Below, piece after piece: positions 9,407-55,394 of a stretch of 64,000 nt of DNA. Source of the stretch: Nitrosopumilus sp. (GTDB lineage: Archaea > Thermoproteota > Nitrososphaeria > Nitrososphaerales > Nitrosopumilaceae); contig OZ241857.1 of NCBI GenBank assembly GCA_965203315.1, positions 1,632,001 to 1,696,000 on the forward strand. Reading direction: 5' to 3'. The notes under the pieces were generated by a model. It saw only the letters and a program-made list of their open reading frames with translations. It had not been told where the DNA came from and made no database searches. A program made the position numbers and the translations under genes. The first letter of the stretch is position 1. Each line of letters begins with the position of its first letter.

Positions 9407-9817
9407 ATGAAACATGACTCTCTCTCCGAAGTAGAGATTAGGTCTATCCTAAATCTAAAACGCATAGCTGTTGTTGGCATGTCTCGCGATCCATCAAAGG
9501 ACGCGCATCAAGTACCCAAGTATCTTATCAAAAATGGATATGATGTAATACCCGTAAATCCTTATACTGATGAGATACTTGGTAGACGCTGCTACTCTAA
9601 AGTATCTGAGATCGAGTCTCCTGTGGATATAGTTGAGATATTTCGTCCGTCTGATCAAGTCCTTTCTATAATGTATGATGTCATCAAGAAACAACCATGT
9701 GTGGTATGGTTGCAACTGGGAATTCATAATATTGCGGCTGAACAACTAGCAACAAAATCTGGCATCAAAGTCGTCTTTAATCGATGTATGTTGATCGAAC
9801 ACACGAGATTGATATGA
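9407..9817 (+). CDS. CoA-binding protein (YccU-like)
   Basis: IAVVGMS, GYDVIPVNP, VDIVEIFRPS, VWLQLGI, NRCMLIEH. Start moved to ATG 9407. Confidence 0.9.
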   Translation: MKHDSLSEVEIRSILNLKRIAVVGMSRDPSKDAHQVPKYLIKNGYDVIPVNPYTDEILGRRCYSKVSEIESPVDIVEIFRPSDQVLSIMYDVIKKQPCVVWLQLGIHNIAAEQLATKSGIKVVFNRCMLIEHTRLI

Positions 9818-10173
9818 CTCTGTTTACAGATTTTTACAAGAGCTTGCTTGAACTAGCAGAGCAGTATGAAGAACAAGGTCTATCACTTAGAATAGATAGC
9901 GATCTAGAACAAGGATCGATTCATGTTCATGGCGAGCACTCGACACAAGTCACTCAAGCAAGAGACGGTCTAAATTATGCACTCGAACTTGCATACACCA
10001 CATCTGAACATCATCCATATTGGGGATTATTGCATCATGCTGTACAAACAGCATCTGTAGTTTTAGAGAAGTGGAATGATGATATGTCTGATGAGGACTG
10101 GGATGAGATTCAATGGATGGTACAAGAATTAAATCATATACTTGAGAGGGAAGAATCTACTAGGCAGAGATAA
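9814..10173 (+). CDS. Hypothetical protein
   Basis: Acidic ORF; ATG overlaps the stop of the upstream gene (ATGA coupling). Confidence 0.7.
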   Translation: MTLFTDFYKSLLELAEQYEEQGLSLRIDSDLEQGSIHVHGEHSTQVTQARDGLNYALELAYTTSEHHPYWGLLHHAVQTASVVLEKWNDDMSDEDWDEIQWMVQELNHILEREESTRQR

Positions 10174-11579: not shown

Positions 11580-12468
11580 CTAGATCATCTCCCACAACTT
11601 GACGAATCTCTCTTGTCCTATCTCGAATAGTTACAGCACTAATTCCTGACACATCTGCGATTTTTACTTGTGATATATTCTCTGCATTTATTATAGAAGC
11701 TAGATGTATAGCAGCAGCGGCCATCGCCACTGGATTCTTACTCGTTGTAATGTTCTTTCTTTGAGCAATATCTAGTATGTCTAGTGCACACCTCTCTGTC
11801 CTCTCTGATACCGGAATCGATTTTGCAATTCTTGGTACAAACTCGATTGGACTATATGCGACCGGCGTGATATCCATCTTTTTTATTATAAATCGATATA
11901 TCTTTTGTAGATTCTTCTTTTTGATGTTTCCTGCTGTTGCAATGTCTTGAAGTGTTCGTGGGGTATTTGTGAGTCTACATGTTATGTATATTGCAGCACA
12001 CAGTGCACTAGTAGTTGATCGTCCAGATAGTATCTTCTTTGCTACCATCTTTCTAAAAAAGTGCGCTGTCTGTTCAACTATTGGCTCTGGCAACCCAAGC
12101 CGACCTGCCATGCCATCTAGTAGAATGAATGCTTTCTGAAACGACTTGGTCGACAAGGCATATCTGCTGTTTCTGTCCCACATCCTTAAACGATAGAACA
12201 TTCGTTTATTCTCACTTGACAGATCCCTGCCAGTAACATCTTTGTCTTTTGACTCGATGATTGTAGACAGTCCCATGTCTACCATCTTTAACGAGATCTT
12301 TTGTCCAGTTCTAGATTCGTTATAATGTTCTCCAGTACTCTCAGGTCCTGTGTAAAACACTCTCTCTGAACAGACTGCACCACAATTACTACAAGCAATC
12401 TCGCCTGTATGATAATCTGTAACTATATTACTACTCTTGCAATCTGCCTGATGAACTATCTCTACCAA
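11572..12468 (-). CDS. tfb: Second, divergent transcription initiation factor B
   Basis: DYHTGEIACSNCG, DMGLSTII, RLRMWD, TPRTLQDI, GISAVTIRDR. B-reader EWR motif is absent. Confidence 0.9.
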   Translation of the reverse strand: MVEIVHQADCKSSNIVTDYHTGEIACSNCGAVCSERVFYTGPESTGEHYNESRTGQKISLKMVDMGLSTIIESKDKDVTGRDLSSENKRMFYRLRMWDRNSRYALSTKSFQKAFILLDGMAGRLGLPEPIVEQTAHFFRKMVAKKILSGRSTTSALCAAIYITCRLTNTPRTLQDIATAGNIKKKNLQKIYRFIIKKMDITPVAYSPIEFVPRIAKSIPVSERTERCALDILDIAQRKNITTSKNPVAMAAAAIHLASIINAENISQVKIADVSGISAVTIRDRTREIRQVVGDDLDG

Positions 12469-38115: not shown

Positions 38116-38793
38116 TTATCTGATATACCTAAAGTTTAGATAATATCCACCTTGATGATTATGCTCAGACTTGCATTTCTGGCATATTGTCACAATATGC
38201 GCGATATACTCGTTTGAATCTTTGGTGAAATAGATGTACCAAAACTGTTTCTTGTATTGTATGTGATTTCCACACTCTGTACATTTTGCAGATCGACGTG
38301 AATCTTTGTCAAACTCAAACTTGTATGATCTTTCTATAGATTCAACTCCGAGCCATGGAGTTTCTAATTCCGATTTACATTTTGGACAATTCGCAATACG
38401 TAAAAATTCATATAATCCAAATATTTTGTGTGGAAGCTCAGATTCTGGATCAAACTTTTTTCCAGTCTTTACTCGAAGAAATTGATAGCTTAAAAATTCT
38501 TTATATGCATCACTCTGTACGTCAGAATGCGTTTTTATGTATTCTAGCAGATTCTCTATCATTACATGTGCACCTTTTGGTATGCTTTCTCTAAACTCTT
38601 CAAGTTTCATTTCAACATGGAACAAATGATCCGCTAGATCTGAAGAGCATGTATATGCTGACATTAGATGTTTTTCATTATCCTCATCTGTGTTAAAATA
38701 TATGCTCTTCTTCTGCTTCCATCGGAGTCTGCGATGATCTAGTTTTGCATCGCACTCGTGACAGATTAGATCAAACTCTTCGTCTCTCTTCAA
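38116..38793 (-). CDS. Hypothetical protein with four CxxC pairs (member 3, short subtype)
   Basis: CHEC-x10-W, FGLYEF-x5-CPKC-x7-WLGVES, CTEC-x10-W, TICQKC. Confidence 0.8.
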   Translation of the reverse strand: MKRDEEFDLICHECDAKLDHRRLRWKQKKSIYFNTDEDNEKHLMSAYTCSSDLADHLFHVEMKLEEFRESIPKGAHVMIENLLEYIKTHSDVQSDAYKEFLSYQFLRVKTGKKFDPESELPHKIFGLYEFLRIANCPKCKSELETPWLGVESIERSYKFEFDKDSRRSAKCTECGNHIQYKKQFWYIYFTKDSNEYIAHIVTICQKCKSEHNHQGGYYLNFRYIR

Positions 38794-38862: not shown

Positions 38863-39531
38863 TCATGCTATGTATCTAAAGTTTAGATTATATCCGCCTT
38901 CATGATGATGTTCATTATGACATCTCTTGCATATAGTTACAACATGTGATTCAAAATAGTCTTCGTCTTTAGTAAAATAGATGTACCAAAATTGCTCTCT
39001 ATATTTTATATAATTGTGACATTCAGAGCATTTTGAGATTCTTGGTTTCGGTACACCAAAAGAGTGTACTACCTCTTGTGATTCAGGACCTCTCCATGGC
39101 GTCTCTAACTCACTCTTGCATTTTGGACATTTTGATACATATAGAAATTCATAACTACCAAATATTTTGTTAGGTTGTTCTGACTCTCGATCAAAGTCCT
39201 TTCCAGTAGTTATGCGAAGAAAATCATTGCCTAGAAATTTCTCATAAACTTCGCTCTTTACATCCGAGTGTGTTGCCATGTACTTGAACATGTCGTCAGC
39301 CGTTATCTTTAAGCCGTTCCTTATATCGTCTATCAGTCTTGAAAACTGTAATTCACGTTCAAATAAACGATCTGTTATCTTCCTATCACATGTGGGGTTA
39401 GACACTGCGTATTTGTTATTATCATCTATCACCCCTCCAAATTCTGTGTATTTTTTCTGCCGCCATCTTAATTTTGTATGATCTAGTTTTGTGTTACACT
39501 CGTGACATATTATGTCGAATCTTTCACTCAC
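38863..39531 (-). CDS. Hypothetical protein with four CxxC pairs (member 4, short subtype)
   Basis: Tandem paralog of 38116-38793 (CPKCKSELETPW, QFWYIYFTKD, GGYxLNFRYI). Confidence 0.8.
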   Translation of the reverse strand: MSERFDIICHECNTKLDHTKLRWRQKKYTEFGGVIDDNNKYAVSNPTCDRKITDRLFERELQFSRLIDDIRNGLKITADDMFKYMATHSDVKSEVYEKFLGNDFLRITTGKDFDRESEQPNKIFGSYEFLYVSKCPKCKSELETPWRGPESQEVVHSFGVPKPRISKCSECHNYIKYREQFWYIYFTKDEDYFESHVVTICKRCHNEHHHEGGYNLNFRYIA

Positions 39532-39693: not shown

Positions 39694-39759
39694 TTAGTGA
39701 TAGCAGTATAGATGTACTAGTATATATCAAGACGTCTTAGCGTGAATCAGACCATCTGA

Positions 39760-39843
39760 TAGGCGCGGTGGGATTTGAACCCACGATGGCCTTTGCTATT
39801 CATTGACGATGAATTCTGCTGGGCCAAGCTCTAGCACACGTCT
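39760..39843 (-). ncRNA. Atypical tRNA-like element (long variable region, GTC at the anticodon position) or pseudo-tRNA
   Basis: AGACGTG TG CTAG AGCTTGGCCCA GCAG A ATTCA TCGTCAA TGAAT AGCAAAGGCCATC GTGGG TTCAAAT CCCAC CGCGCCT A folds as a cloverleaf with perfect T and anticodon stems. Confidence 0.65.
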
Positions 39844-40060
39844 AAACTTAAAATATAACATTATACTAATAACAATATTGACGATGAGTTGAGCCTTTGC
39901 TAACTCGTAGAGTTGGTTTCACATAGGAGCCATCTCTCATTTTTGATTGAAGAACTATACCATAAAAGAACGGAGTGCTTGTAATTCGAGTTGAATATTG
40001 ATGATTGTTATCTATGTGGAAATAAACTTGCGAGTAATCAAAAATTAATATGATTGTATG

Positions 40061-40288: not shown

Positions 40289-40966
40289 CTATTCTATATA
40301 TCTGAGGCCCAAGTTGTAGTTACCTTTGTACTGGGTCTCTGATTGACATTTTTGGCATATTGTTGTAATGTTTGGTTTATACTCGTGAAATTCGTCTCTT
40401 GTAAAGTAAATATACCAAAACTGACTCGTGATTACTATTCTGCTATTACATGCTCTACATTTTATGAAAGAATCAGACTTTCTGTTTTTGCTGGACAGCT
40501 TTGATGCATTGATAGAGTCGGTACCGCGCCACGGAGTCTCTAGCCTTGTTTCACACTTTGGACAGTCTGCCATATGCAAAAACTCATAGTTTCCAAACAC
40601 AATATATGGGAGATCTGCTTCTGGATCACTCTTTCTTCTACTTGCTGGAGTGAGCGACTCTGCATTAGAAAATGATCTATATGCATTAGCACGTATGTCC
40701 TCATTTTGCATAATGTATAACAACATATCATAATCTGATGGTCTCTTGCCCTCTCTCATCTCTTTTTTGATCTTTTCTATCTCGACTTCTGTCTCCAATA
40801 AATGCTCTGTGACTTGTGGAGGTTCTGTAGATATTGAAAGTGCATGTCTCTTGTTATCTTCATTAGTGTCAAATTCTACACTCTTTATCTGTCTCCATTT
40901 GAGTTTACTGTGGTGTAGTTTTGATCCACATCCGTGACAGATTAGATCAAATTTCTCTACTCCCAT
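40289..40966 (-). CDS. Hypothetical protein with four CxxC pairs (member 5, short subtype)
   Basis: CHGC-x10-W, FGNYEF-x5-CPKC-x7-WRGTDS, CRAC-x10-W, TICQKC. Confidence 0.8.
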   Translation of the reverse strand: MGVEKFDLICHGCGSKLHHSKLKWRQIKSVEFDTNEDNKRHALSISTEPPQVTEHLLETEVEIEKIKKEMREGKRPSDYDMLLYIMQNEDIRANAYRSFSNAESLTPASRRKSDPEADLPYIVFGNYEFLHMADCPKCETRLETPWRGTDSINASKLSSKNRKSDSFIKCRACNSRIVITSQFWYIYFTRDEFHEYKPNITTICQKCQSETQYKGNYNLGLRYIE

Positions 40967-41021: not shown

Positions 41022-44000
41022 TTACTGAAATTTGGTCAGCTTGCCACTCTCTTCTGGTTGTGTAATGAACATGGCTCCGATCAACTTTAGTTCTGCTCGT
41101 TGTATGTCTTCTTTGATCTTGATCGGTTCTGTCTTTTCTTGTAGTCCGATAAACTCACTCATCTTTTTGATACTGGATACTAGGCTATCAATATCTTGCG
41201 TTCTGTCATAATCTAGTAGATACTCTCTGATATCGTCTTGCCATGCTCTAACATACTCTGATTTTATGATGTTTGTGACCTCTCGACCATCATCTTTTGT
41301 TATGTGGCCATTGATTGTAGCATCTATTATGATCTTTTTTATCTTTGAGACATCCTTGTCGTACTGTTGTCTCTTTTTGCCCACGCTCTCCTTTACATAC
41401 TGGATAATCTGATCATTCTTTCTATCTATTGCATCTCTTGCTTTTCTGTCGATATCTAGCAACATCTCGAATGACTCTTGATTATTGGGTCCATCCATTG
41501 GAAGATACGTTGGAGTATCTACATTACAAGATATCATGTTTATGGCTTCAAAGTCATCATCAGGTACATATGCCTTGTCTCTCGTACGATCATACACAAC
41601 AAAGTAGACTCGTCTCTCTGGTCTCTCTTGCAGATATCCGAGTATTGCATATCGACCTCTCTCTTGTTTACCACTACGCCTACCCATGGGTACCTCTTCC
41701 ATCTTGTCTATTCCTTTTTCCTTTATGTATCGACTAAGCTCGTTTATCGGTGACACTGCAGGCATTATGTCAGATTCGCGTTCCATGTCTTCGATTACCT
41801 TTGATGTGCCCTCTTTACCTGCAAGAATCTTGATCCTCTCTTTTATGGTCCCATTGAATTGTTTTGGTGTAGGCGTTGTTCCCAATACTTCAGAGTCTAG
41901 ACCCACCGTTTCGTTTACAGTTCCAATCTTCTCTATCAACTTTCCCATGATCTTTAAAATATTGTCTAGCTCTTTGTCTGGATAGCAGGCTCTTGTGTGT
42001 ATTGTATCGTATTCGCTGGTGAGTCTATCTACTCTACCTGTACGTTGAACTATTCTCATTGGATTCCACGGTAAATCATAGTTTATCACATAGTTACAAT
42101 CTTGGAGATTCTGTCCTTCAGACAAGACCTCTGTTGATACTAGGATATCGATCTCTTTTTCATCTAATATTTGATCCTCTAGTAGATTTGCTTTTGGAGC
42201 AAACATTCGTATGTATTTTTTTCTGACTTCTTGTTTTGTACTTCCAGTTATACATTCTATTTTATAATTCACAAATTTGTCTTGTAGTTCTTTTGTAATG
42301 TATTTCGCTGTAGTAACATATTCTGTAAATATCAGTACCTTTCTACTCTCTGTCTCTAGTGCTTTCTCTCGAAGTATTCTTTTTATGACCTCTTCGATCT
42401 TTGTATCTACTGTAATACGCTTTACACTATCTAGTAACTCTTCTAGTATTACGAGATCTTGATCAATATCTGACTTTAGTCTCTCGATATCATATGATTT
42501 GTGTATATTTTCCTTCTCTATCTTGTTTATCTCTTGTATAAAGAATTGGGTCTTTTCTTGATCGTCTGGATCAATATCAGTATCACCTTGTTCAATATCA
42601 TTCCATTTTGTTATTATCCTGTTAAAGTCTCGAACTCGTAGTATCTTTCCTTCGTCTAGTATATCTTTGACTTGCTTGTACAACATGACCTTGTTCTCTA
42701 TGCTTGTTTTACACGCAACTACACTACTCTCAAATCGTTTCAAAAGTAGTATCACTTGGAGATGAGCTACTATGCGATGTCTATTTTTTTCATCTTCTGA
42801 TAGATTTGTATTGTATCGTTCTATTCCGTATGGCGCCATCGTTAATTTTCCGATCTTGTCTAGAATCTCTTCAAAGACGTTTCCATATAGCTCACTCAAG
42901 CTGTACTCTATTGCAGCATAGCTGTGTTTTGGAAACTTTATCTCTCTGCCGTTTATTGTATCATCTTGATATACATCTTTGATGTATGATCTAGTTCGTC
43001 GTACCATTACTGTATCTAAGAGCTGTTGAATCTTTGTCAGTCCTTGAGTCAGACCCTCTTTGTTTGCAGCATCGCGCATGTGTTTGTACAGATCTGGAAT
43101 GCCAATCGTCTTGTAAAAGTAAGTGTCTTCTCCTCCAGTGATGATTGAGAGTTGATAGTATAGGTCCATGAGTGAGTTGTTTATTGGCGTAGCTGAGAGT
43201 AGTACTGCTTGTTTCTTCTTTCCTACTGACATTAATTTCATGAGATTCTTTCTACGGTTTGCCGTCTTTGATCTAAAGTTTTGACTTTCGTCTATTAGTA
43301 CTAGATCTATGTTTCTATACTTGACGAGATCATCTAGTATGATATCTCGTCCAAGTGACTCCATTGTCAGTTTCTCTCTGATATTGATATCTACCTCTTT
43401 TAGTTTCTCTTCCCACATGCTGTGTAATACTTGTGCTGGGGCTATCAGTAAGACCTTTTTGCCTTCTTTGAGTACCTTTTGTCGTAGTATCTCAATGCCG
43501 ATATTTGTTTTGCCAAGACCTGTCGCATCTGCAATTATTGTACCGCCATGATCTGCTACTATGAATAGTCCGGTTCTTACTGCATCTTGCTGAAACTTTG
43601 TAAGTGTCTTGCTAGAAATATCTCTCTCGTCTACCTTTGTTAATAGTGGTTTGAATCTCTCAAATAATAGTTTCATGTATACTTGATGTGGATTTGGCGG
43701 TACTCCAAACTTTGATTCTTTGAGTACACTGATGAGATCTTGTTTGGTATCTTTGGATTGATCCCACATTCGATCAAACCACTCTCTTGTAGTCTTGCTG
43801 ATTCCTGGTTGATACAGTCCTGCATTCAGTTCATAGTTTCCTACCATTCCTGCTGCTGTAAAGTTGCTTGAGCCAACAAAGACTGCATTGTCTCCTAGAA
43901 TGTAGCACTTGGAGTGATTGAACCTTCTCGTACCTTGTCTGACTTGGACGTTCTGCCTCTCTAAGAGTTTGATGAGGCTAGATATATCATTCATGGACTT

Positions 44001-44306
44001 TTGATCTAGATCGGTATCTTCTAGACTTGCCTTGAGAGATATCGATTCCTTGTATTGTTTAGCATATTCTTCAAATGTCTTCTCTGACGGTACGATCGCC
44101 TCCTTACCTAGTAATAGTCGTATCTCGAATGAATCTCTCTCTATTGCAGATTCAAGATTCTCTCGTAGCATTCCATATCCCTGTACGTTGAAATAACCTG
44201 TAGAGATGTCTAGATATCCAGCACTTGGGATCTCTGAGTTGAGAATCATTTGCATTGTATGTGGTTCTGTGTTGTCGATGATATCTCGCTTGATGCGTTC
44301 AGTCAT
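41022..44306 (-). CDS. PLD-nuclease/SNF2-type helicase fusion associated with the R-M methyltransferase
   Basis: HSKCYI...GSSNFT...NYELN PLD motif; ADATGLGKT, LIDESQ, SATPINN, SEGQNLQ, QRTGRVDR. ATG overlaps the upstream TGA. Confidence 0.9.
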   Translation of the reverse strand: MTERIKRDIIDNTEPHTMQMILNSEIPSAGYLDISTGYFNVQGYGMLRENLESAIERDSFEIRLLLGKEAIVPSEKTFEEYAKQYKESISLKASLEDTDLDQKSMNDISSLIKLLERQNVQVRQGTRRFNHSKCYILGDNAVFVGSSNFTAAGMVGNYELNAGLYQPGISKTTREWFDRMWDQSKDTKQDLISVLKESKFGVPPNPHQVYMKLLFERFKPLLTKVDERDISSKTLTKFQQDAVRTGLFIVADHGGTIIADATGLGKTNIGIEILRQKVLKEGKKVLLIAPAQVLHSMWEEKLKEVDINIREKLTMESLGRDIILDDLVKYRNIDLVLIDESQNFRSKTANRRKNLMKLMSVGKKKQAVLLSATPINNSLMDLYYQLSIITGGEDTYFYKTIGIPDLYKHMRDAANKEGLTQGLTKIQQLLDTVMVRRTRSYIKDVYQDDTINGREIKFPKHSYAAIEYSLSELYGNVFEEILDKIGKLTMAPYGIERYNTNLSEDEKNRHRIVAHLQVILLLKRFESSVVACKTSIENKVMLYKQVKDILDEGKILRVRDFNRIITKWNDIEQGDTDIDPDDQEKTQFFIQEINKIEKENIHKSYDIERLKSDIDQDLVILEELLDSVKRITVDTKIEEVIKRILREKALETESRKVLIFTEYVTTAKYITKELQDKFVNYKIECITGSTKQEVRKKYIRMFAPKANLLEDQILDEKEIDILVSTEVLSEGQNLQDCNYVINYDLPWNPMRIVQRTGRVDRLTSEYDTIHTRACYPDKELDNILKIMGKLIEKIGTVNETVGLDSEVLGTTPTPKQFNGTIKERIKILAGKEGTSKVIEDMERESDIMPAVSPINELSRYIKEKGIDKMEEVPMGRRSGKQERGRYAILGYLQERPERRVYFVVYDRTRDKAYVPDDDFEAINMISCNVDTPTYLPMDGPNNQESFEMLLDIDRKARDAIDRKNDQIIQYVKESVGKKRQQYDKDVSKIKKIIIDATINGHITKDDGREVTNIIKSEYVRAWQDDIREYLLDYDRTQDIDSLVSSIKKMSEFIGLQEKTEPIKIKEDIQRAELKLIGAMFITQPEESGKLTKFQ

Positions 44307-47300
44307 TGTGATATCGCCTCATAATATTCTAGTGCAAGTGCAGCCATCTCACCATAGAACTCTTTAATGTTCTTGTTATCCCAAACAATATCTTGCATCT
44401 CGTACAGCTGTTGGTTTCTCTTGAATAGTGGAAATGTATCGATTATTGTCTTGTACTCCTGTACAGTTAAACAGTACGAGTGTGCAACTAGAGCATCTAG
44501 TTCAGCAGTGACCTCGATCTTTTCTGCTGGTGTTAGTTTCTTGTTTTCTATGTGAAATATCTCAGCAAACTCCTCAAACTCTGGTGTGCCAACTAGAAGT
44601 TTTGTTGCAAGTTCAGCAATTTGTCTATCATGAACTGATTTTGGTAAAGGTAATGTTGATACAATGCTAGCTAGATTTGTCTGGTTTTTTGAACGAGATA
44701 TAAAATCAAATGTTAATGAATTCAACACTCCACACAAATATGAAATTTTTCTATGATATTCTGAATCTAAAATAATCTTTTCGTATTTTTTTAGAATAAC
44801 AGAACGTAAAGAATTTGAATGAAATGTATTCTGAGATATAATGGTAGATATGCATGTACGCATATTTGTGGGACTTGTAATGTTGCGAAAAATTAGTCTG
44901 TACGAGTTATGAATCTCTTTACACTTACCTAAAAATGCTTTTACTCCATTTAGTCTATCTAATCCTTTCTTTTTGTTTGATGCGAATTGTGGCCTAGCCC
45001 ATTCTTGTGTATATTGATGTATGTTTTTACCTTCAAATACTAACCAGCCTTTCCCATCTTCTGACAAGAGATCGGAGTCGTTTGTTTTATGAAATTCACT
45101 TACAAGCTTAACCTGCCATCCGTCTTTTAGATTTGATAATGATAATTTTGTTTGTGATAACTTTTGAAATATATTTGATTGAGTACCTATTATTTCTGGT
45201 ATTGTATATTCTTCTGGAGATGTTTCTATAATTGTTTTCTTAGATAACGTACCGAATTTCTCTTGTTCTCTAGAATGGTCTTCTAGTGAGTCAAGGTAAT
45301 GTATATAAAACCCAGCTGGGAACTGTCCTGTCCTGTCCTGTCCTGTCCTGTCCTGTCCTGTCCTGTCCTGTCCTGTCCTGTCCTGTCCTGTCCTGTCCTG
45401 TCCTGTCCTGTCCTGTCCTGTCCTGTCCTGTCCTGTCCTGTCCTGTCCTGTCCTGTCCTGTCCTGTCCTGTCCTGTCCTGTCCTGTCCTGTCCTGTCCTG
45501 TCCTGTCCTGTCCTGTCCTGTCCTGTCCTGTCCTGTCCTGTCCTGTCCTGTCCTGTCCTGTCCTGTCCTGTCCTGTCCTGTCCTGTCCTGTCCTGTCCTG
45601 TCCTGTCCTGTCCTGTCCTGTCCTGTCCTGTCCTGTCCTGTCCTGTCCTGTCCTGTCCTGTATAGTTAATAACAAAAATCGATAACTTGAATGAATATTG
45701 AATATCTTTTTTCTATTTTCAAATACATACATTGAGATGATATCTCTTTCAAGTATGTACTTACGAAGATTTATGCCACCTGGGATGGTAAGGAGTTGTG
45801 CCGGAATTAATATTGAAACGATACCATTTTCTGTAGTGAGATATAACGTCCGTTCTAGTATGAGTTTCCATAAATCATTATCCCCTGTTCCTTGTAGTGA
45901 AAATATGTTATAAAACAATGATTTTTCTCTTATTTGTTTTTCATACAAGTCCCACAATCTTTTAATATTATGTTCTTTGAGAAGATCTTTTTTTCTCTCT
46001 TTCTTTTTGACATTCGGTTTTAGATCCTTAAATGTGGGATCAATTGGAGTAAAAAACTCGTCATCGCTAGGCTTTACTTTCTCCCAGGGGGGGTTGCCAA
46101 CTATGCAATCAAAGCCTCGTCTAGAGTCAGTAAATGCGTCATTGAACTCGAGCTCCCAATGAAAGAATCTGTGGCGCTCTGCTAGATCATTTACAATTTT
46201 TTGGGCCTTTGCAATATCATTTGACTTGTCATATATGCCAAACCGATGAATAAACTCTGACTTTGCTTTCTTTGGCAGAATCTTTGGTTCAATCTTTGAT
46301 GCGGTTAATGCATCTAGGACATTTCTGTTTGGTTCTATTGATTTGATGTATTCGTTATACTTGTCCTCACTCTCATGAACTTGCTGTATTGTCACATCTG
46401 AACTTGAGACAATATCGTGCATCATCTTTGTCGACTCATTGCTAAGAGTATAGTCATCTAGAGACGTATTCTGCTTATCATCCAGATCATCAAGAAACAT
46501 TCCTATCGTAGAGTCGCCTACTTTGAGATGATGATCCATATACGTCAGCGGAACACCAATTGCAAAGGAATCTAACCACAATGACAGCTTGGCTAGATCT
46601 ACTGCCATTGGATTTATGTCGACTCCAAATATGCACCGTTTCATTATTTTACGTTTGAGCAGTACATCTGGAGTTAGCAGATTCTCATCAATTGTAACTC
46701 CTTTCTTGTTCTGCTCTTCTAGTACTCTCTTTCTATCCCGTTCTATCTCATCTAGTAGAGGATGATCTGGATGTTTTTCTAACGTATCTGTGACCCATGA
46801 TGTGATTCTGTTTAATGCTTCAACTAGAAAGTGACCACTGCCCATTGCTGGGTCTAGTACCTGAATATCTAACAGTCTGTCCATACATATCTGTAGATTT
46901 TTTGCAGTCTTGTTCTTCTTGTATTGTTTGATATCTTTGTCAATCAACTCTTCACGTTCTGCAAAGATTGGACCCAGTCCCTGTTTTACCAAAAATTTTA
47001 CAATCTTTTCTGGTGTGTAATAACTTGCAGATGTCTTGCGTGATACAATTCCACTCTTTGATGCAAGATAGAGATCATTCTTTTTGTACGAATAGGTGGA
47101 CTCTTGCTTTGTCTTGACCTGTCGAACTCCTTTACTGTCTTCAAGTAATGCAATATCCTCTTTTGCTTGTTTTGGCTCGTACTCTAATAGTCGCTCAAAT
47201 ACACTGCCCAAATGCCTGACCGTTAAACCGGTATAGTCTAATGTCTCGCCATCTCGTTCTAATAGTCCACGTAGTGCACTCGCAATGAATCGATTTTGAA

Positions 47301-48594
47301 TGTGTAGTTCATCTCCAGCCTTACCTATCTTGAATAGATCCCCGTTATACTGTGGCAGATTGTGTTTTGGACTGCCCTTTCTAACTGCTGTAAATAATTC
47401 TAGTAACGCATCCCAACAATCTGTACCTTTTGGATTCTGTTCATACGAATCCAAGTGATTACGAATAGATTGTAGTGATATGGGCTTGTACTTTTCGTCC
47501 CTTGTAGGCAAAAGATTTTTGGCTTCAGCATATGCCAAAAACCAAACTCTATACATGATTCTCAGTGCAGACTGTTTTGCAACCGCTAGCTCGTCTGATC
47601 TGAATGTCTTTTTACCGTCATGATCCAGTACTCCTTTAATGATATCCAAGAATAGTCCTTTTGGACTCATTATCTTCTCTGCAAGATTCTCCTCCAGATC
47701 TCTCGAATGCTCTTTACTCTCCTCAAAGAATAACTCGATGTCTCTCTTTCCATCTATCTCTTCAAAGGTATTAGCACCAAACATAATTATCAGATATCGA
47801 GTTACTGATTCACGTGCATCATCGAGATTTATCTCAAAATAGTTTGTACTGGTCGCTGATATCTTGCTAGAGTACAAACGCCACCTCTTACCATTTGTTA
47901 GTATAGACCACTCTTTCTCAGAGAGAGACGAGACAGCTGTATAACTTGGTGTCACCTCATTGTCAGTCTTTCTTATGTTAAAGTCCTCTTGATCTGTTAT
48001 GGTTATTGCCACTTTGTCGTATGACTCTTTTGTCATATCCCAACCAAGTGCTTCTAGTATCTCTCTAACACTTGATCCAATCTTTTGTTTAACTTTGGGT
48101 AAGATATCATCTACATCTTGTCGTGTATCTTGAAAGATTCTGCTACGAAGATAATGTGTTGCAAATAGTCCGCGATTATCAAAGTCTCCAGTAGTATTTG
48201 GGATTGCATTAATTGATTGCTTTATTCCTATCTTTAGATCAAACTCGTCTGCAGCATCTGTAATTCCGTTGGATTTTAGTACACTTGCAATTCGTTCATA
48301 CTCGAATCTATTTTCTAATCTAGTTATGTGACTCTCTCCAGAAGACTTGAGAAACAGTGCTCCGAGTTCTTGTACAATTACTATACAGTCCTCAAAGTTA
48401 ATCAGTGCTTTCTTTACTTCTGATATCTTTTTTGGTCCATTATTGATCAGTATGATTGGAATCTCTTTGGTAGGATTGTCGTGATTCAAACTATAACACA
48501 ACCAGTCTTCTGCCAGTGGAATCTCTCGTTTTGCTATCAGATCTACTCCTATGGACTCTAGTAGAATCTGTTGTTCTGTATTCATAACGATCAC
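44303..48594 (-). CDS. Type IIG-like N6-adenine methyltransferase/R-M protein, frameshifted by an SSR (OFF state as assembled)
   Basis: YYTP, LDPAMGSGHFL and VGNPPW in ORF 45283-48594. Past the repeat, the -1 frame is open from 45325 (QFPAGFYIHYLDSL...) into ORF 44303-45067 (TRD: FEGKNIHQY, YLCGVLNS, ELDALVAHSY). Confidence 0.88.
45323..45661. repeat. Perfect pentanucleotide microsatellite (CTGTC)n, about 67.8 units
   Basis: 339 bp uninterrupted; encodes (QDRTG)n on the minus strand inside the methyltransferase gene. Confidence 0.97.
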
Positions 48595-54289: not shown

Positions 54290-54591
54290 TAGTTCAAGTT
54301 CGTACTAGGAGATATGACGATGATCTATTGTCCATGAAAAAGTCACTCTCTCATATGGAGACACTTTTAGGAGTATACAATGGATGCAAATTTAGCGAAC
54401 CGTCATCAAAGTTTGGTTGGACATTCTTCAAGATCAACTTTTCATCAAATCTACAATCTGCTATCGAGATCAAGTTTGCCGACATGTTGTCAAAATATAG
54501 GTGGAGTAATCAGACTCAAAAGTTTGTAAAGTTTATGAATGATTATTTTAACGCACGTGGTTCTGATGTGACTCTGTCTGTATCTGACTAG
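54286..54591 (+). CDS. Hypothetical protein
   Basis: GTG start overlaps the upstream TGA; 101 aa. Confidence 0.6.
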
Positions 54592-55229
54592 ACCCTTCTT
54601 CCTCGTTTGCCACCCTTCTTTCTAGTTGTATCGTGAGGAATTGGTGTAACATCATCGATTCTCCCAATCTTGAATCCTCCTCTGGCAAGAGCTCGAATTG
54701 CCGCCTGTGCTCCTGGACCTGGAACTCTAGATCCTACTCCACCCACAGCTCTAACTCTGATATGAAATCCAACAAAGCCTTTTGTTCTAGCAGATTCGAT
54801 AACTTTGTTTGCTGCTTTCATTGCAGCAAAAGGTGACGATTCATATCTATCTGCTGTAACGTGGTTTCCTCCAGAACTTATTGAGACAGTCTCGCCTCCG
54901 GTTAGATCAGTCATGTGTATTATCGTATTGTTATAACTACTAAAGATGTGCGCTATTCCCCACTTTTCTTGAGTCTCTTTTTTAGGCTCTTCCTTCTCTT
55001 CTGGTTTAGCCTCAGCCTTTGGTTCTACAGGTACCTCTCTAGTAACTGACGCATCACTCTCTATAGACACATTCTCTTCTGGTTTAGCCTCAACCTTTGG
55101 TTCTACAGGTACCTCTCTAGTAACTGACGCATCACCCTCTATAGACACACTCTCTTCTGGTTTAGCCTCAACCTTTGGTTCTACAGGTACTGTAACAACC
55201 TCTGATACTACATTGTCTGTATCTGACAC
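54588..55229 (-). CDS. rps11: 30S ribosomal protein uS11 with long acidic N-terminal extension
   Basis: [43 protein letters not shown]. Start probably GTG 55229. Confidence 0.95.
54995..55190. repeat. 78-bp tandem repeat (about 2.5 copies) within the rps11 5' region
   Basis: GGTTCTACAGGTAC at 55021, 55099 and 55177; unit [26 protein letters not shown]. Confidence 0.92.
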
Positions 55230-55394
55230 GATTATACCACTCTCTATGGGTTTAAAATACATTGTTTGATTCACGTGTAATCCATGCTTGTGGTACATAT
55301 CGGTATCAAGACAGACATGGATATCATTATGAAAAGTCATTCCAACCCATATCGTGTCTTGAGATCAGACGTACTAGTGATGTTTAGATCCCAG

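Follow-up and report, generated by a model that had tools for sequence, protein, structure and literature searches.

A perfect 68-unit microsatellite splits a DNA methylase gene in Nitrosopumilus: a candidate archaeal contingency locus

The locus

A predicted DNA methylase gene and a nuclease–helicase gene lie side by side on the minus strand of a 64,000-nucleotide (nt) stretch of a Nitrosopumilus sp. genome (contig OZ241857.1, positions 1,632,001–1,696,000), and the methylase gene is divided between two reading frames by a perfect pentanucleotide microsatellite. We refer to this whole 64,000-nt stretch as the window and give gene coordinates in its numbering. The locus had been singled out from the sequence alone, in what we call the original prediction, as a probably phase-variable restriction-modification (R-M) gene of an archaeon. 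Its features are as follows (“OFF” denotes a tract length that puts the two parts of the methylase gene out of frame with each other, “ON” one that joins them).

45323..45661, minus strand: a perfect microsatellite with a five-base unit, reading (GACAG)67.8 along the coding strand and (CTGTC)n along the plus strand (Tandem Repeats Finder and raw sequence)
45283..48594, minus strand: methyltransferase (MTase) reading frame as assembled (OFF), comprising an N-terminal region, the MTase core, the repeat, 12 out-of-frame codons and a stop
47035–48594, minus strand: the N-terminal ~520 amino acids of the methylase, conserved, with an invariant TNGxxWRLY among its motifs; modeled with a predicted local distance difference test score (pLDDT) of 87.7
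44303..45322, minus strand: C-terminal part of the MTase, 339 codons in a shifted frame, encoding the second strand of a hairpin (FPAGFYIHYL) and a TaqI-like target-recognition domain (TRD); stop at 44303–44305
44303..44306, minus strand: ATGA overlap of the methylase stop (TGA) and the helicase start (ATG), sequence CAATGACT
41022..44306, minus strand: partner gene, an intact open reading frame (ORF) of 1,094 amino acids with an N-terminal single-HKD (PLD-family) nuclease domain, an SNF2/SF2 helicase and a ~300-residue C-terminal region

The repeat tract and the two frames

Tandem Repeats Finder describes the tract as 339 nt of period 5, with 67.8 copies, 100% matches, no indels and a score of 678, so that the perfect (CTGTC)n of about 67.8 units in the original prediction is borne out by both the program and the raw sequence. 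It is the sole microsatellite among the four tandem arrays that the program found in the window, and a regular-expression scan of the whole 64 kb for simple sequence repeats (SSRs) with units of 1–9 nt returned no second one. In all three frames the tract encodes the same stop-free peptide, (QDRTG)n. No DNA hairpin is predicted within the repeat on either strand (0 kcal/mol, DNA parameters), and hairpin-driven expansion, which we considered, is thus unsupported.

The frame that enters the tract from the N-terminal side (the N-part) begins at GTG 48594 or, more likely, at ATG 48585 and ends at a stop codon at 45283–45285, giving 1,103 or 1,100 amino acids; the database copy of this part (P0002) has 1,100. 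The second frame (the C frame, which encodes the C-part) contains no stops from 45712 down to 44303 and so spans the entire repeat. On this point the original prediction was right about the stop at 45283 and about a C frame free of stops from 45325 to 44303, yet that frame is really open from 45712, through the repeat. The first base after the tract lies at offset 2 in the N frame and at offset 0 in the C frame, and the two frames fuse at tract lengths congruent to 1 modulo 3, such as 334 nt (one unit fewer) or 349 nt (two units more). Loss of one unit or gain of two does, as had been predicted, restore a single ORF, which in the allele shorter by one unit has 1,425 codons counted from ATG 48585. 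Every third length class is therefore ON; the tract as assembled is OFF, and both OFF classes terminate 9–13 codons past the tract.

The open C frame has no stops in 339 codons, vs. 25 and 26 in its sister frames, and a frame so open has a chance probability of 1.5e-12 from base composition, with none of 20,000 shuffles open. The gene thus carries an SSR inside its ORF whose unit is not a multiple of three, and alternative tract lengths restore a full ORF with the remainder intact (977 + 339 stop-free codons, matched in register by one profile), as expected of an SSR-driven phase-variable gene. Tandem Repeats Finder, the translations and the frame arithmetic together confirm this anatomy, namely an MTase ORF that contains a non-triplet SSR and is in frame at one of every three length classes, and with it the observation that a microsatellite splits the methylase gene.

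One methylase gene in two frames

In the N-part, Pfam finds Eco57I (7.4e-22, above cut-off), MmeI_Mtase (2.4e-09) and N6_Mtase, and motif I (VLDPAMGSGHFLV) and motif IV (NPPW) can be read in the translation; in the C-part the TaqI_C match is sub-threshold (1.6e-4, 22.3 bits vs. a cut-off of 26.5). Two profiles run through both parts. Specifically, PADLOC REase_MTase_IIG (PDLC03613) aligns to the N-part over profile positions 114–905 and to the C-part over 926–1243 of 1250, and NCBIfam TIGR02987 over positions 92–233 and 253–505 of 523, respectively. Because these single profiles span both frames in register, we regard the two parts as one gene. Among the 120 best homologs, 104 are single proteins of at least 1,184 residues, a single ORF of 1,328–1,391 codons occupies all four archaeal orthologous loci (L001–L004), and the C-part is 54% identical to that of the ortholog in L001. 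A gamma-class N6-adenine MTase is recognized by motif I, an NPPW/Y motif IV and a TRD C-terminal to the core, all of which are found here; judged by sequence and model, the gene is a predicted gamma-class N6-adenine MTase (Eco57I/TaqI-like) with its own target-recognition domain.

No nuclease family was detected in the methylase protein by the Pfam scan, and the REase_MTase_IIG alignment begins only at profile position 114. When the model of the N-terminal 520 residues (pLDDT 87.7) was searched against PDB folds there were no matches at E ≤ 0.001 (BpuSI reached E 0.44), and the methylase sequence had no matches among solved structures. The endonuclease within the methylase polypeptide that characterizes Type IIG enzymes was thus not found, while a divergent nuclease fold may be present. 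Because no nuclease family was detected in the methylase, the partner's HKD domain is the most likely nuclease. The description of the locus as an R-M gene therefore holds for its methylase part and fails for its nuclease part, which likely resides in the next gene, and we would sooner call it the methylase component of a two-gene module, methylase + HKD-SNF2, than a bifunctional R-M gene.

Integrity of the gene

Relative to the four archaeal orthologs, the ratio of C-part to N-part identity is 0.88–0.93 for the window gene, and among the intact orthologs themselves it is 0.84–1.05. The partner ORF and its catalytic motifs are undamaged, and methylase motifs I and IV are present. The original prediction had held that other inactivating lesions would count against it; we looked for them and found none besides the frame, with no stops in the C frame, a normal C/N ratio and an intact partner. 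Apart from the frame, the gene shows no decay that its sequence betrays. As the C-part is not over-diverged and both halves and the partner are intact, a reversible switch accounts for the locus better than an old pseudogene would.

Breaks near the same position occur elsewhere in the family. Two proteins of 989 and 355 residues (P0008 and P0123), both on a 1,939,457-bp contig, are split ~10 codons before the loop in which the window carries its repeat and appear to be two pieces of one family methylase, and a further homolog (P0054) is frameshifted after GGGG inside that loop. These cases may represent recurrent breakage near the loop or, for some, sequencing error in metagenome-assembled genomes (MAGs).

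The insertion site and its structural setting

At the insertion site the orthologs follow the pattern YRFxLL(S/T)x-RNxxGxDx-FPAGFY and the window has YRFLLLTI-(QDRTG)n-Q-FPAGFY; all flanking codons are retained, which argues against a chimeric misassembly. The intervening loop could be delimited by regular expression in 87 homologs and is 9 residues long in 69 of them, 10 in 16, 12 in 1 and 18 in 1. In the comparison with related orthologs that the original prediction had proposed, the four archaeal orthologs are single ORFs, and the repeat site is a short loop that contains no repeat.

The structural setting was read from an AlphaFold2 model of the closest ortholog, that of L001 (residues 501–1328, 47-row alignment, pLDDT 80.3, predicted template-modeling score 0.81). 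In this model the loop is the turn of a beta-hairpin with strands at 473–480 and 487–494 (local pLDDT 92–94), the hairpin lies at the C-terminal edge of the catalytic domain, and the recognition domain comes next; the fold matches CamA, PglX/BrxX, M.BseCI and M.TaqI, all of them gamma-class N6-adenine methylases. The original prediction had placed the tract between the catalytic and recognition regions; in the ortholog model it falls not in an inter-domain linker but at the tip of this hairpin, at the catalytic domain's C-terminal edge and just before the recognition domain. The OFF product lacks the second hairpin strand and the entire recognition domain, and therefore should be null. A loop of ~111 residues in an ON product may be tolerated, since its two ends would be adjacent and the geometry is compatible with a disordered excursion.

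In one homolog (P0124) the loop reads RNGTGQDEFP and resembles the repeat unit. Its T-G-Q-D, if encoded ACA GGA CAG GAC, would contain more than two GACAG units, and so the (QDRTG)n plausibly grew from native loop codons, to judge from the sequences. A search with the (QDRTG)n peptide against 1.84 billion representatives gave 6,344 matches and was dropped, as the 12 best of the 150 listed look like unrelated, apparently eukaryotic translated microsatellites that lack methylase flanks; this search is uninformative on other (GACAG)n loci in the host genome.

Homopolymer runs at relatives were considered as well. A G23 and a C36 just upstream of the L001 methylase (9912–9981) flank runs of N, and a C26 in the helicase gene of L013 (14235–14270) borders one, and all three were rejected as SSRs because they are scaffold-gap artefacts. 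A G9 at 9815–9823 of L002, from a Nitrosopumilus MAG, lies ~90 nt upstream of the probable methylase start, and another at 12419–12427 of L038 lies within a methylase ORF of Tengunoibacter tsumagoiensis that is itself intact; given their shortness and error-prone sources, neither can be called.

The partner gene and the two-gene module

The partner matches PLDc_2 (1.2e-15), SNF2-rel_dom (9.4e-14) and Helicase_C (7.8e-23) in Pfam and, in PADLOC, HKD+Snf2 (C3a139, 1.8e-55) and DrmD (4.6e-34). Its translation shows HSK...D...GSSN (HKD), GLGKT (Walker A), DESQ (DExx) and QRTGRVDR (motif VI). In the window and in all four archaeal loci (L001–L004) the methylase lies next to the partner, and its stop overlaps or abuts the partner's start. 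As the methylase stop overlaps the helicase ATG, we infer that ribosomes would reach the helicase start only in the ON frame, with translational coupling across the ATGA.

We compared 79 related loci, those among the matches listed from a contig search; many are short contigs, so that the pair's absence from them means little. A full-length helicase homolog lies downstream of the methylase in 13 further loci of this set, all bacterial, where PIN, AbiE, an extra PLD or a DpnII-like nuclease stands as cargo between the two genes. The surroundings of the archaeal pairs differ: in L001 the pair has eIF-1A, RIO1 and Topo VI on one side and, on the opposite side, genes for SBDS, the exosome and an RNA polymerase subunit (Rpb3/RpoA-like domains), transposases border it in L002, and none of the 17 flank proteins of the window was found in the 79 loci, which offer no orthologous empty site for comparison. 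From these differing genomic contexts, methylase + HKD-SNF2 is a self-contained, mobile two-gene module.

Comparison with known systems

Among the closest known systems are the Type III mod phasevarions of Haemophilus, Neisseria and Helicobacter, in which a non-triplet SSR in an MTase ORF likewise turns the gene ON and OFF by frameshift; phase-variable Type III mod genes are described as including pentanucleotide tracts such as GCACA(n) (PMC5909438). In those systems, too, target recognition for restriction resides in the methylase, so that OFF should be safe. However, they pair a beta-class Mod with Res (a helicase with a PD-(D/E)xK nuclease), whereas the window gene matches gamma-class families only, being Eco57I/TaqI-like, and its HKD-SNF2 partner carries an HKD/PLD nuclease. 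They differ also in that the tract here has 68 units, lies three quarters into the gene and falls in a catalytic-domain hairpin, and the host is a non-pathogenic archaeon. A pentanucleotide-tract hsdM of Haemophilus influenzae, a Type I gene (cited in PMC7383803), is similar in that a methylase gene carries a five-base SSR and serves an ATP-dependent R-M system of several subunits, but it belongs to another methylase family and architecture and to a host-adapted bacterium.

PglX/BrxX of BREX resembles the window protein, both being large N6-adenine MTases of the gamma class that are extended at the N-terminus and have their TRD at the C-terminus, and the ortholog model matches the PglX/BrxX structures 8q56, 9ewz and 8c45 with E-values of about 1e-13 to 4e-12. 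Streptomyces Pgl phase-varies through a G tract in pglX. In contrast to BREX proper, the methylase scores 54.2 bits vs. an NCBIfam PglX cut-off of 500, and neither PglZ, BrxC nor any other BREX family was found in the scanned ORFs around the gene, whose neighbors are housekeeping genes or have no family match.

Class 1 DISARM is approached by the PADLOC matches to DrmMI (9e-72, methylase) and DrmD (4.6e-34, partner) and by the presence of a PLD domain. It is set apart by the fusion of PLD to the helicase, by DrmMI matches limited to the MTase core, by an NCBIfam DrmD score of 146.7 bits vs. a cut-off of 610 and by a module of only two genes; DrmA and DrmB (DUF1998) were absent from the scanned flanks of the window and of L001–L004. 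Also close are the Type-2 BREX-related (BR) systems, reported from 119 archaeal taxa and predicted to be R-M-like, which combine an N6-MTase with a helicase whose N-terminal HKD endoDNase is fused to Swi2/Snf2 (PMC12839542). The window pair has this combination. According to the same source, however, Type-2 BR is defined by a DUF499 AAA+ ATPase and has a DUF3780 gene in 98% of taxa, and its TRD is nested within the MTase core, whereas the TaqI-like TRD here follows the core (PMC12839542). Neither DUF499 nor DUF3780 gave a Pfam match in the scanned ORFs beside the window pair or in the 29 flanking ORFs of L001–L004, and we do not assign the pair to Type-2 BR.

A switch, and its alternatives

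Our preferred reading, which we hold by a modest margin of belief over its negation, is that the microsatellite serves as a hypermutable frame-switch for the methylase of an R-M-like defense module of two genes, a candidate archaeal contingency locus currently read as OFF. In this model replication slippage would change the unit number at high frequency and produce a mixed ON/OFF population, each unit gained or lost moving the gene between one ON and two OFF frames. Indel variability is reported to climb steeply with SSR length (PMC3315296) and archaeal PolB and PolD to slip on repeats in vitro (PMC4134008); given this established behavior of SSRs, frequent slippage is expected on a perfect 68-unit tract. 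A cell in the OFF state would make a truncated, recognition-less methylase and lose sequence-specific methylation, and its ribosomes would halt ~980 nt upstream of the partner start. By analogy with Type III and Type I systems, the nuclease–helicase probably depends on the methylase for target finding. Because ribosomes would stop before the partner start and the nuclease probably needs the methylase, OFF would lower or disarm restriction too, avoiding self-attack, and the switch would be a safe one. In the ON state the enzyme would tolerate the (QDRTG)n loop as a disordered excursion. A bolder form of this model, which we offer tentatively and find doubtful, is that the locus is the first contingency locus in Archaea, its 68-unit microsatellite stochastically and reversibly switching a whole two-gene virus-defense module (the methylase directly, the nuclease–helicase via coupling) as a form of bet-hedging, in which the population would balance resistance to viruses against what the system costs (or against openness to foreign DNA) and the genome-wide N6-methyladenine (m6A) pattern would flip.

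Several points weigh against a switch. The reading draws on one assembly, in which the ON/OFF state may be off by one unit of the 339-nt SSR, and translational coupling and the dependence of the nuclease on the methylase are inferred. The insert of an ON protein would be ~111 residues, vs. a loop of 9–10 residues in 85 of the 87 homologs, and its place inside the catalytic domain's sheet may leave the ON form without activity. The tract sits three quarters of the way into the gene, and known contingency SSRs are usually near the 5' end; at 68 units it exceeds, to our knowledge, the tracts of characterized phasevarions. No tandem peptide repeat was found in 137 family proteins besides the window's own, and no SSR occurs at this site in the 79 related loci; nothing indicates that such a switch has been maintained by selection in this lineage. 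Archaea as a group are described as having the lowest short-tandem-repeat density of all domains (PMC12699852).

Much of this would fit a recent pseudogene, in which a chance proto-repeat in the loop codons ran away and the methylase was inactivated by the insert or by the frameshift; the tract would then have no part in adaptive switching, and the module would be heading for loss. The gene is out of frame as assembled, the insert is far beyond the natural loop range and interrupts a catalytic-domain beta-hairpin at a late position in the gene, relatives lack a repeat at the site, and the split and frameshifted family copies that lack an SSR (P0008 with P0123, and P0054) make gene loss in the family seem common; the module's different genomic context in each genome is also what gain-and-loss cargo would show. 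On the other hand, 977 + 339 codons are free of stops, the C-part is not excessively diverged, and the partner gene and all motifs are intact. A frameshift in a 68-unit tract is, moreover, reversible at a high rate by the slippage that produced it, so that “dead” would be an unstable condition unless the insert itself inactivates. We consider the pseudogene unlikely, while taking it to be the most serious of the alternatives.

Rather less probable, in our judgment, is that the assembled tract length is wrong by at least one unit, or is the consensus of a mixed population, and that the gene is in frame in most cells with the repeat as an unusually long tolerated loop. A perfect SSR of 339 nt exceeds the length of short reads, noisy long reads are apt to miscount its units, and the 1.94-Mb contig was probably assembled from long reads. 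The database adds a hint that a further record of this genome differs at the gene: the 90% cluster of the N-part has three distinct member sequences and its representative is on one contig, whereas an identical valyl-tRNA synthetase (ValRS) is on two. But a perfect 68-unit non-triplet tract would shift frame often in any case, and an error of length would change the current state and not the mechanism. Finally, programmed ribosomal frameshifting or transcriptional slippage might join the frames in every cell with no change in DNA, as the repeat, stop-free in three frames, would permit read-through. We give this scarcely any credence, as (GACAG)n contains neither a known slippery heptamer nor a run of a single base, prediction gives no stimulatory structure within it (0 kcal/mol, DNA parameters; repeat only) and no homolog requires recoding.

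Host and window neighbors

The host is an archaeon, as had been predicted: the window encodes a ribosomal protein S11 of archaeal type (NCBIfam), along with RtcB and a PDCD5-like dsDNA-binding protein, its ValRS shares 86% identity with that of one other genome and no more than 74% with those named Nitrosopumilus sp. or Nitrosarchaeum sp., and the closest methylase loci among the matches listed come from Nitrosopumilaceae MAGs. By these sequences alone the host would be an ammonia-oxidizing member of the Nitrosopumilaceae that lies outside both named genera. The S11 ORF (54588–55340, minus strand) has an N-terminal extension of ~120 residues, with no start codon near the beginning of the S11 domain; within the extension, 54994–55190 comprises 2.5 in-frame copies of a 78-nt (26-residue) unit, the copies being 97% identical.

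Just downstream of the nuclease–helicase gene, on either side of a tRNA-Asp, are three paralogous ORFs of 222–225 codons (38116–38793, 38863–39531 and 40289–40966, all on the minus strand) with ~70% nucleotide identity in shared blocks; they have no match in Pfam, NCBIfam or PADLOC and a weak PHROG match of unknown function. For the small neighboring ORFs, PHROGs and a protein atlas provided no usable match. The tRNA-Asp(GTC) at 39758–39844 (minus strand) is 87 nt long, and its score with the Rfam tRNA model is a low 31.9 bits, suggestive of an intron such as archaea typically have. Among direct repeats around the island and the tRNA-Asp there was no att-like pair. In a sigma-70 promoter/terminator scan, a model that is not applicable to archaea, sites were no commoner than in shuffles.

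Significance

SSR-driven phase variation of methyltransferases is textbook knowledge for host-adapted bacterial pathogens. In full-text literature on archaeal phase-variable R-M, archaeal contingency loci and the R-M and methylome of Nitrosopumilus we found no described archaeal SSR-switched R-M system, in agreement with the original prediction, which knew of no well-characterized archaeal example; supplementary tables, which lie outside the searched text, might list archaeal ones. In its available sections, a survey of archaeal R-M mentions phase-variable systems only via citations of bacterial surveys (PMC10609329), and the word “archaea” does not occur in the texts of the Type III (PMC5909438) and Type I (PMC7383803) SSR surveys. 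One preprint, a second-hand source in this respect, states that contingency loci were studied in archaea, citing Vashakidze and Prangishvili on simple repetitive sequences. The anatomy of an SSR frame-switch is met here in a new setting, which combines an archaeal host, a gamma-class methylase belonging to a two-gene HKD-SNF2 module and a tract within a catalytic-domain hairpin.

Were the gene dead, it would be a clean case of microsatellite expansion destroying a gene in a type of genome that normally avoids such repeats. If switching is true, hypermutable bet-hedging against viruses would extend beyond bacteria and host-associated niches, there would be an explanation for heterogeneous methylomes in MAGs and archaeal populations, and tract length would be a simple marker to relate to virus pressure. 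The locus would then also illustrate the possible birth of a contingency locus from a few loop codons and draw notice to the methylase + HKD-SNF2 pair, a compact and apparently undescribed two-gene variant of BREX-related and DISARM-like systems. As the Nitrosopumilaceae are globally abundant nitrifiers, a switching defense module among them would matter.

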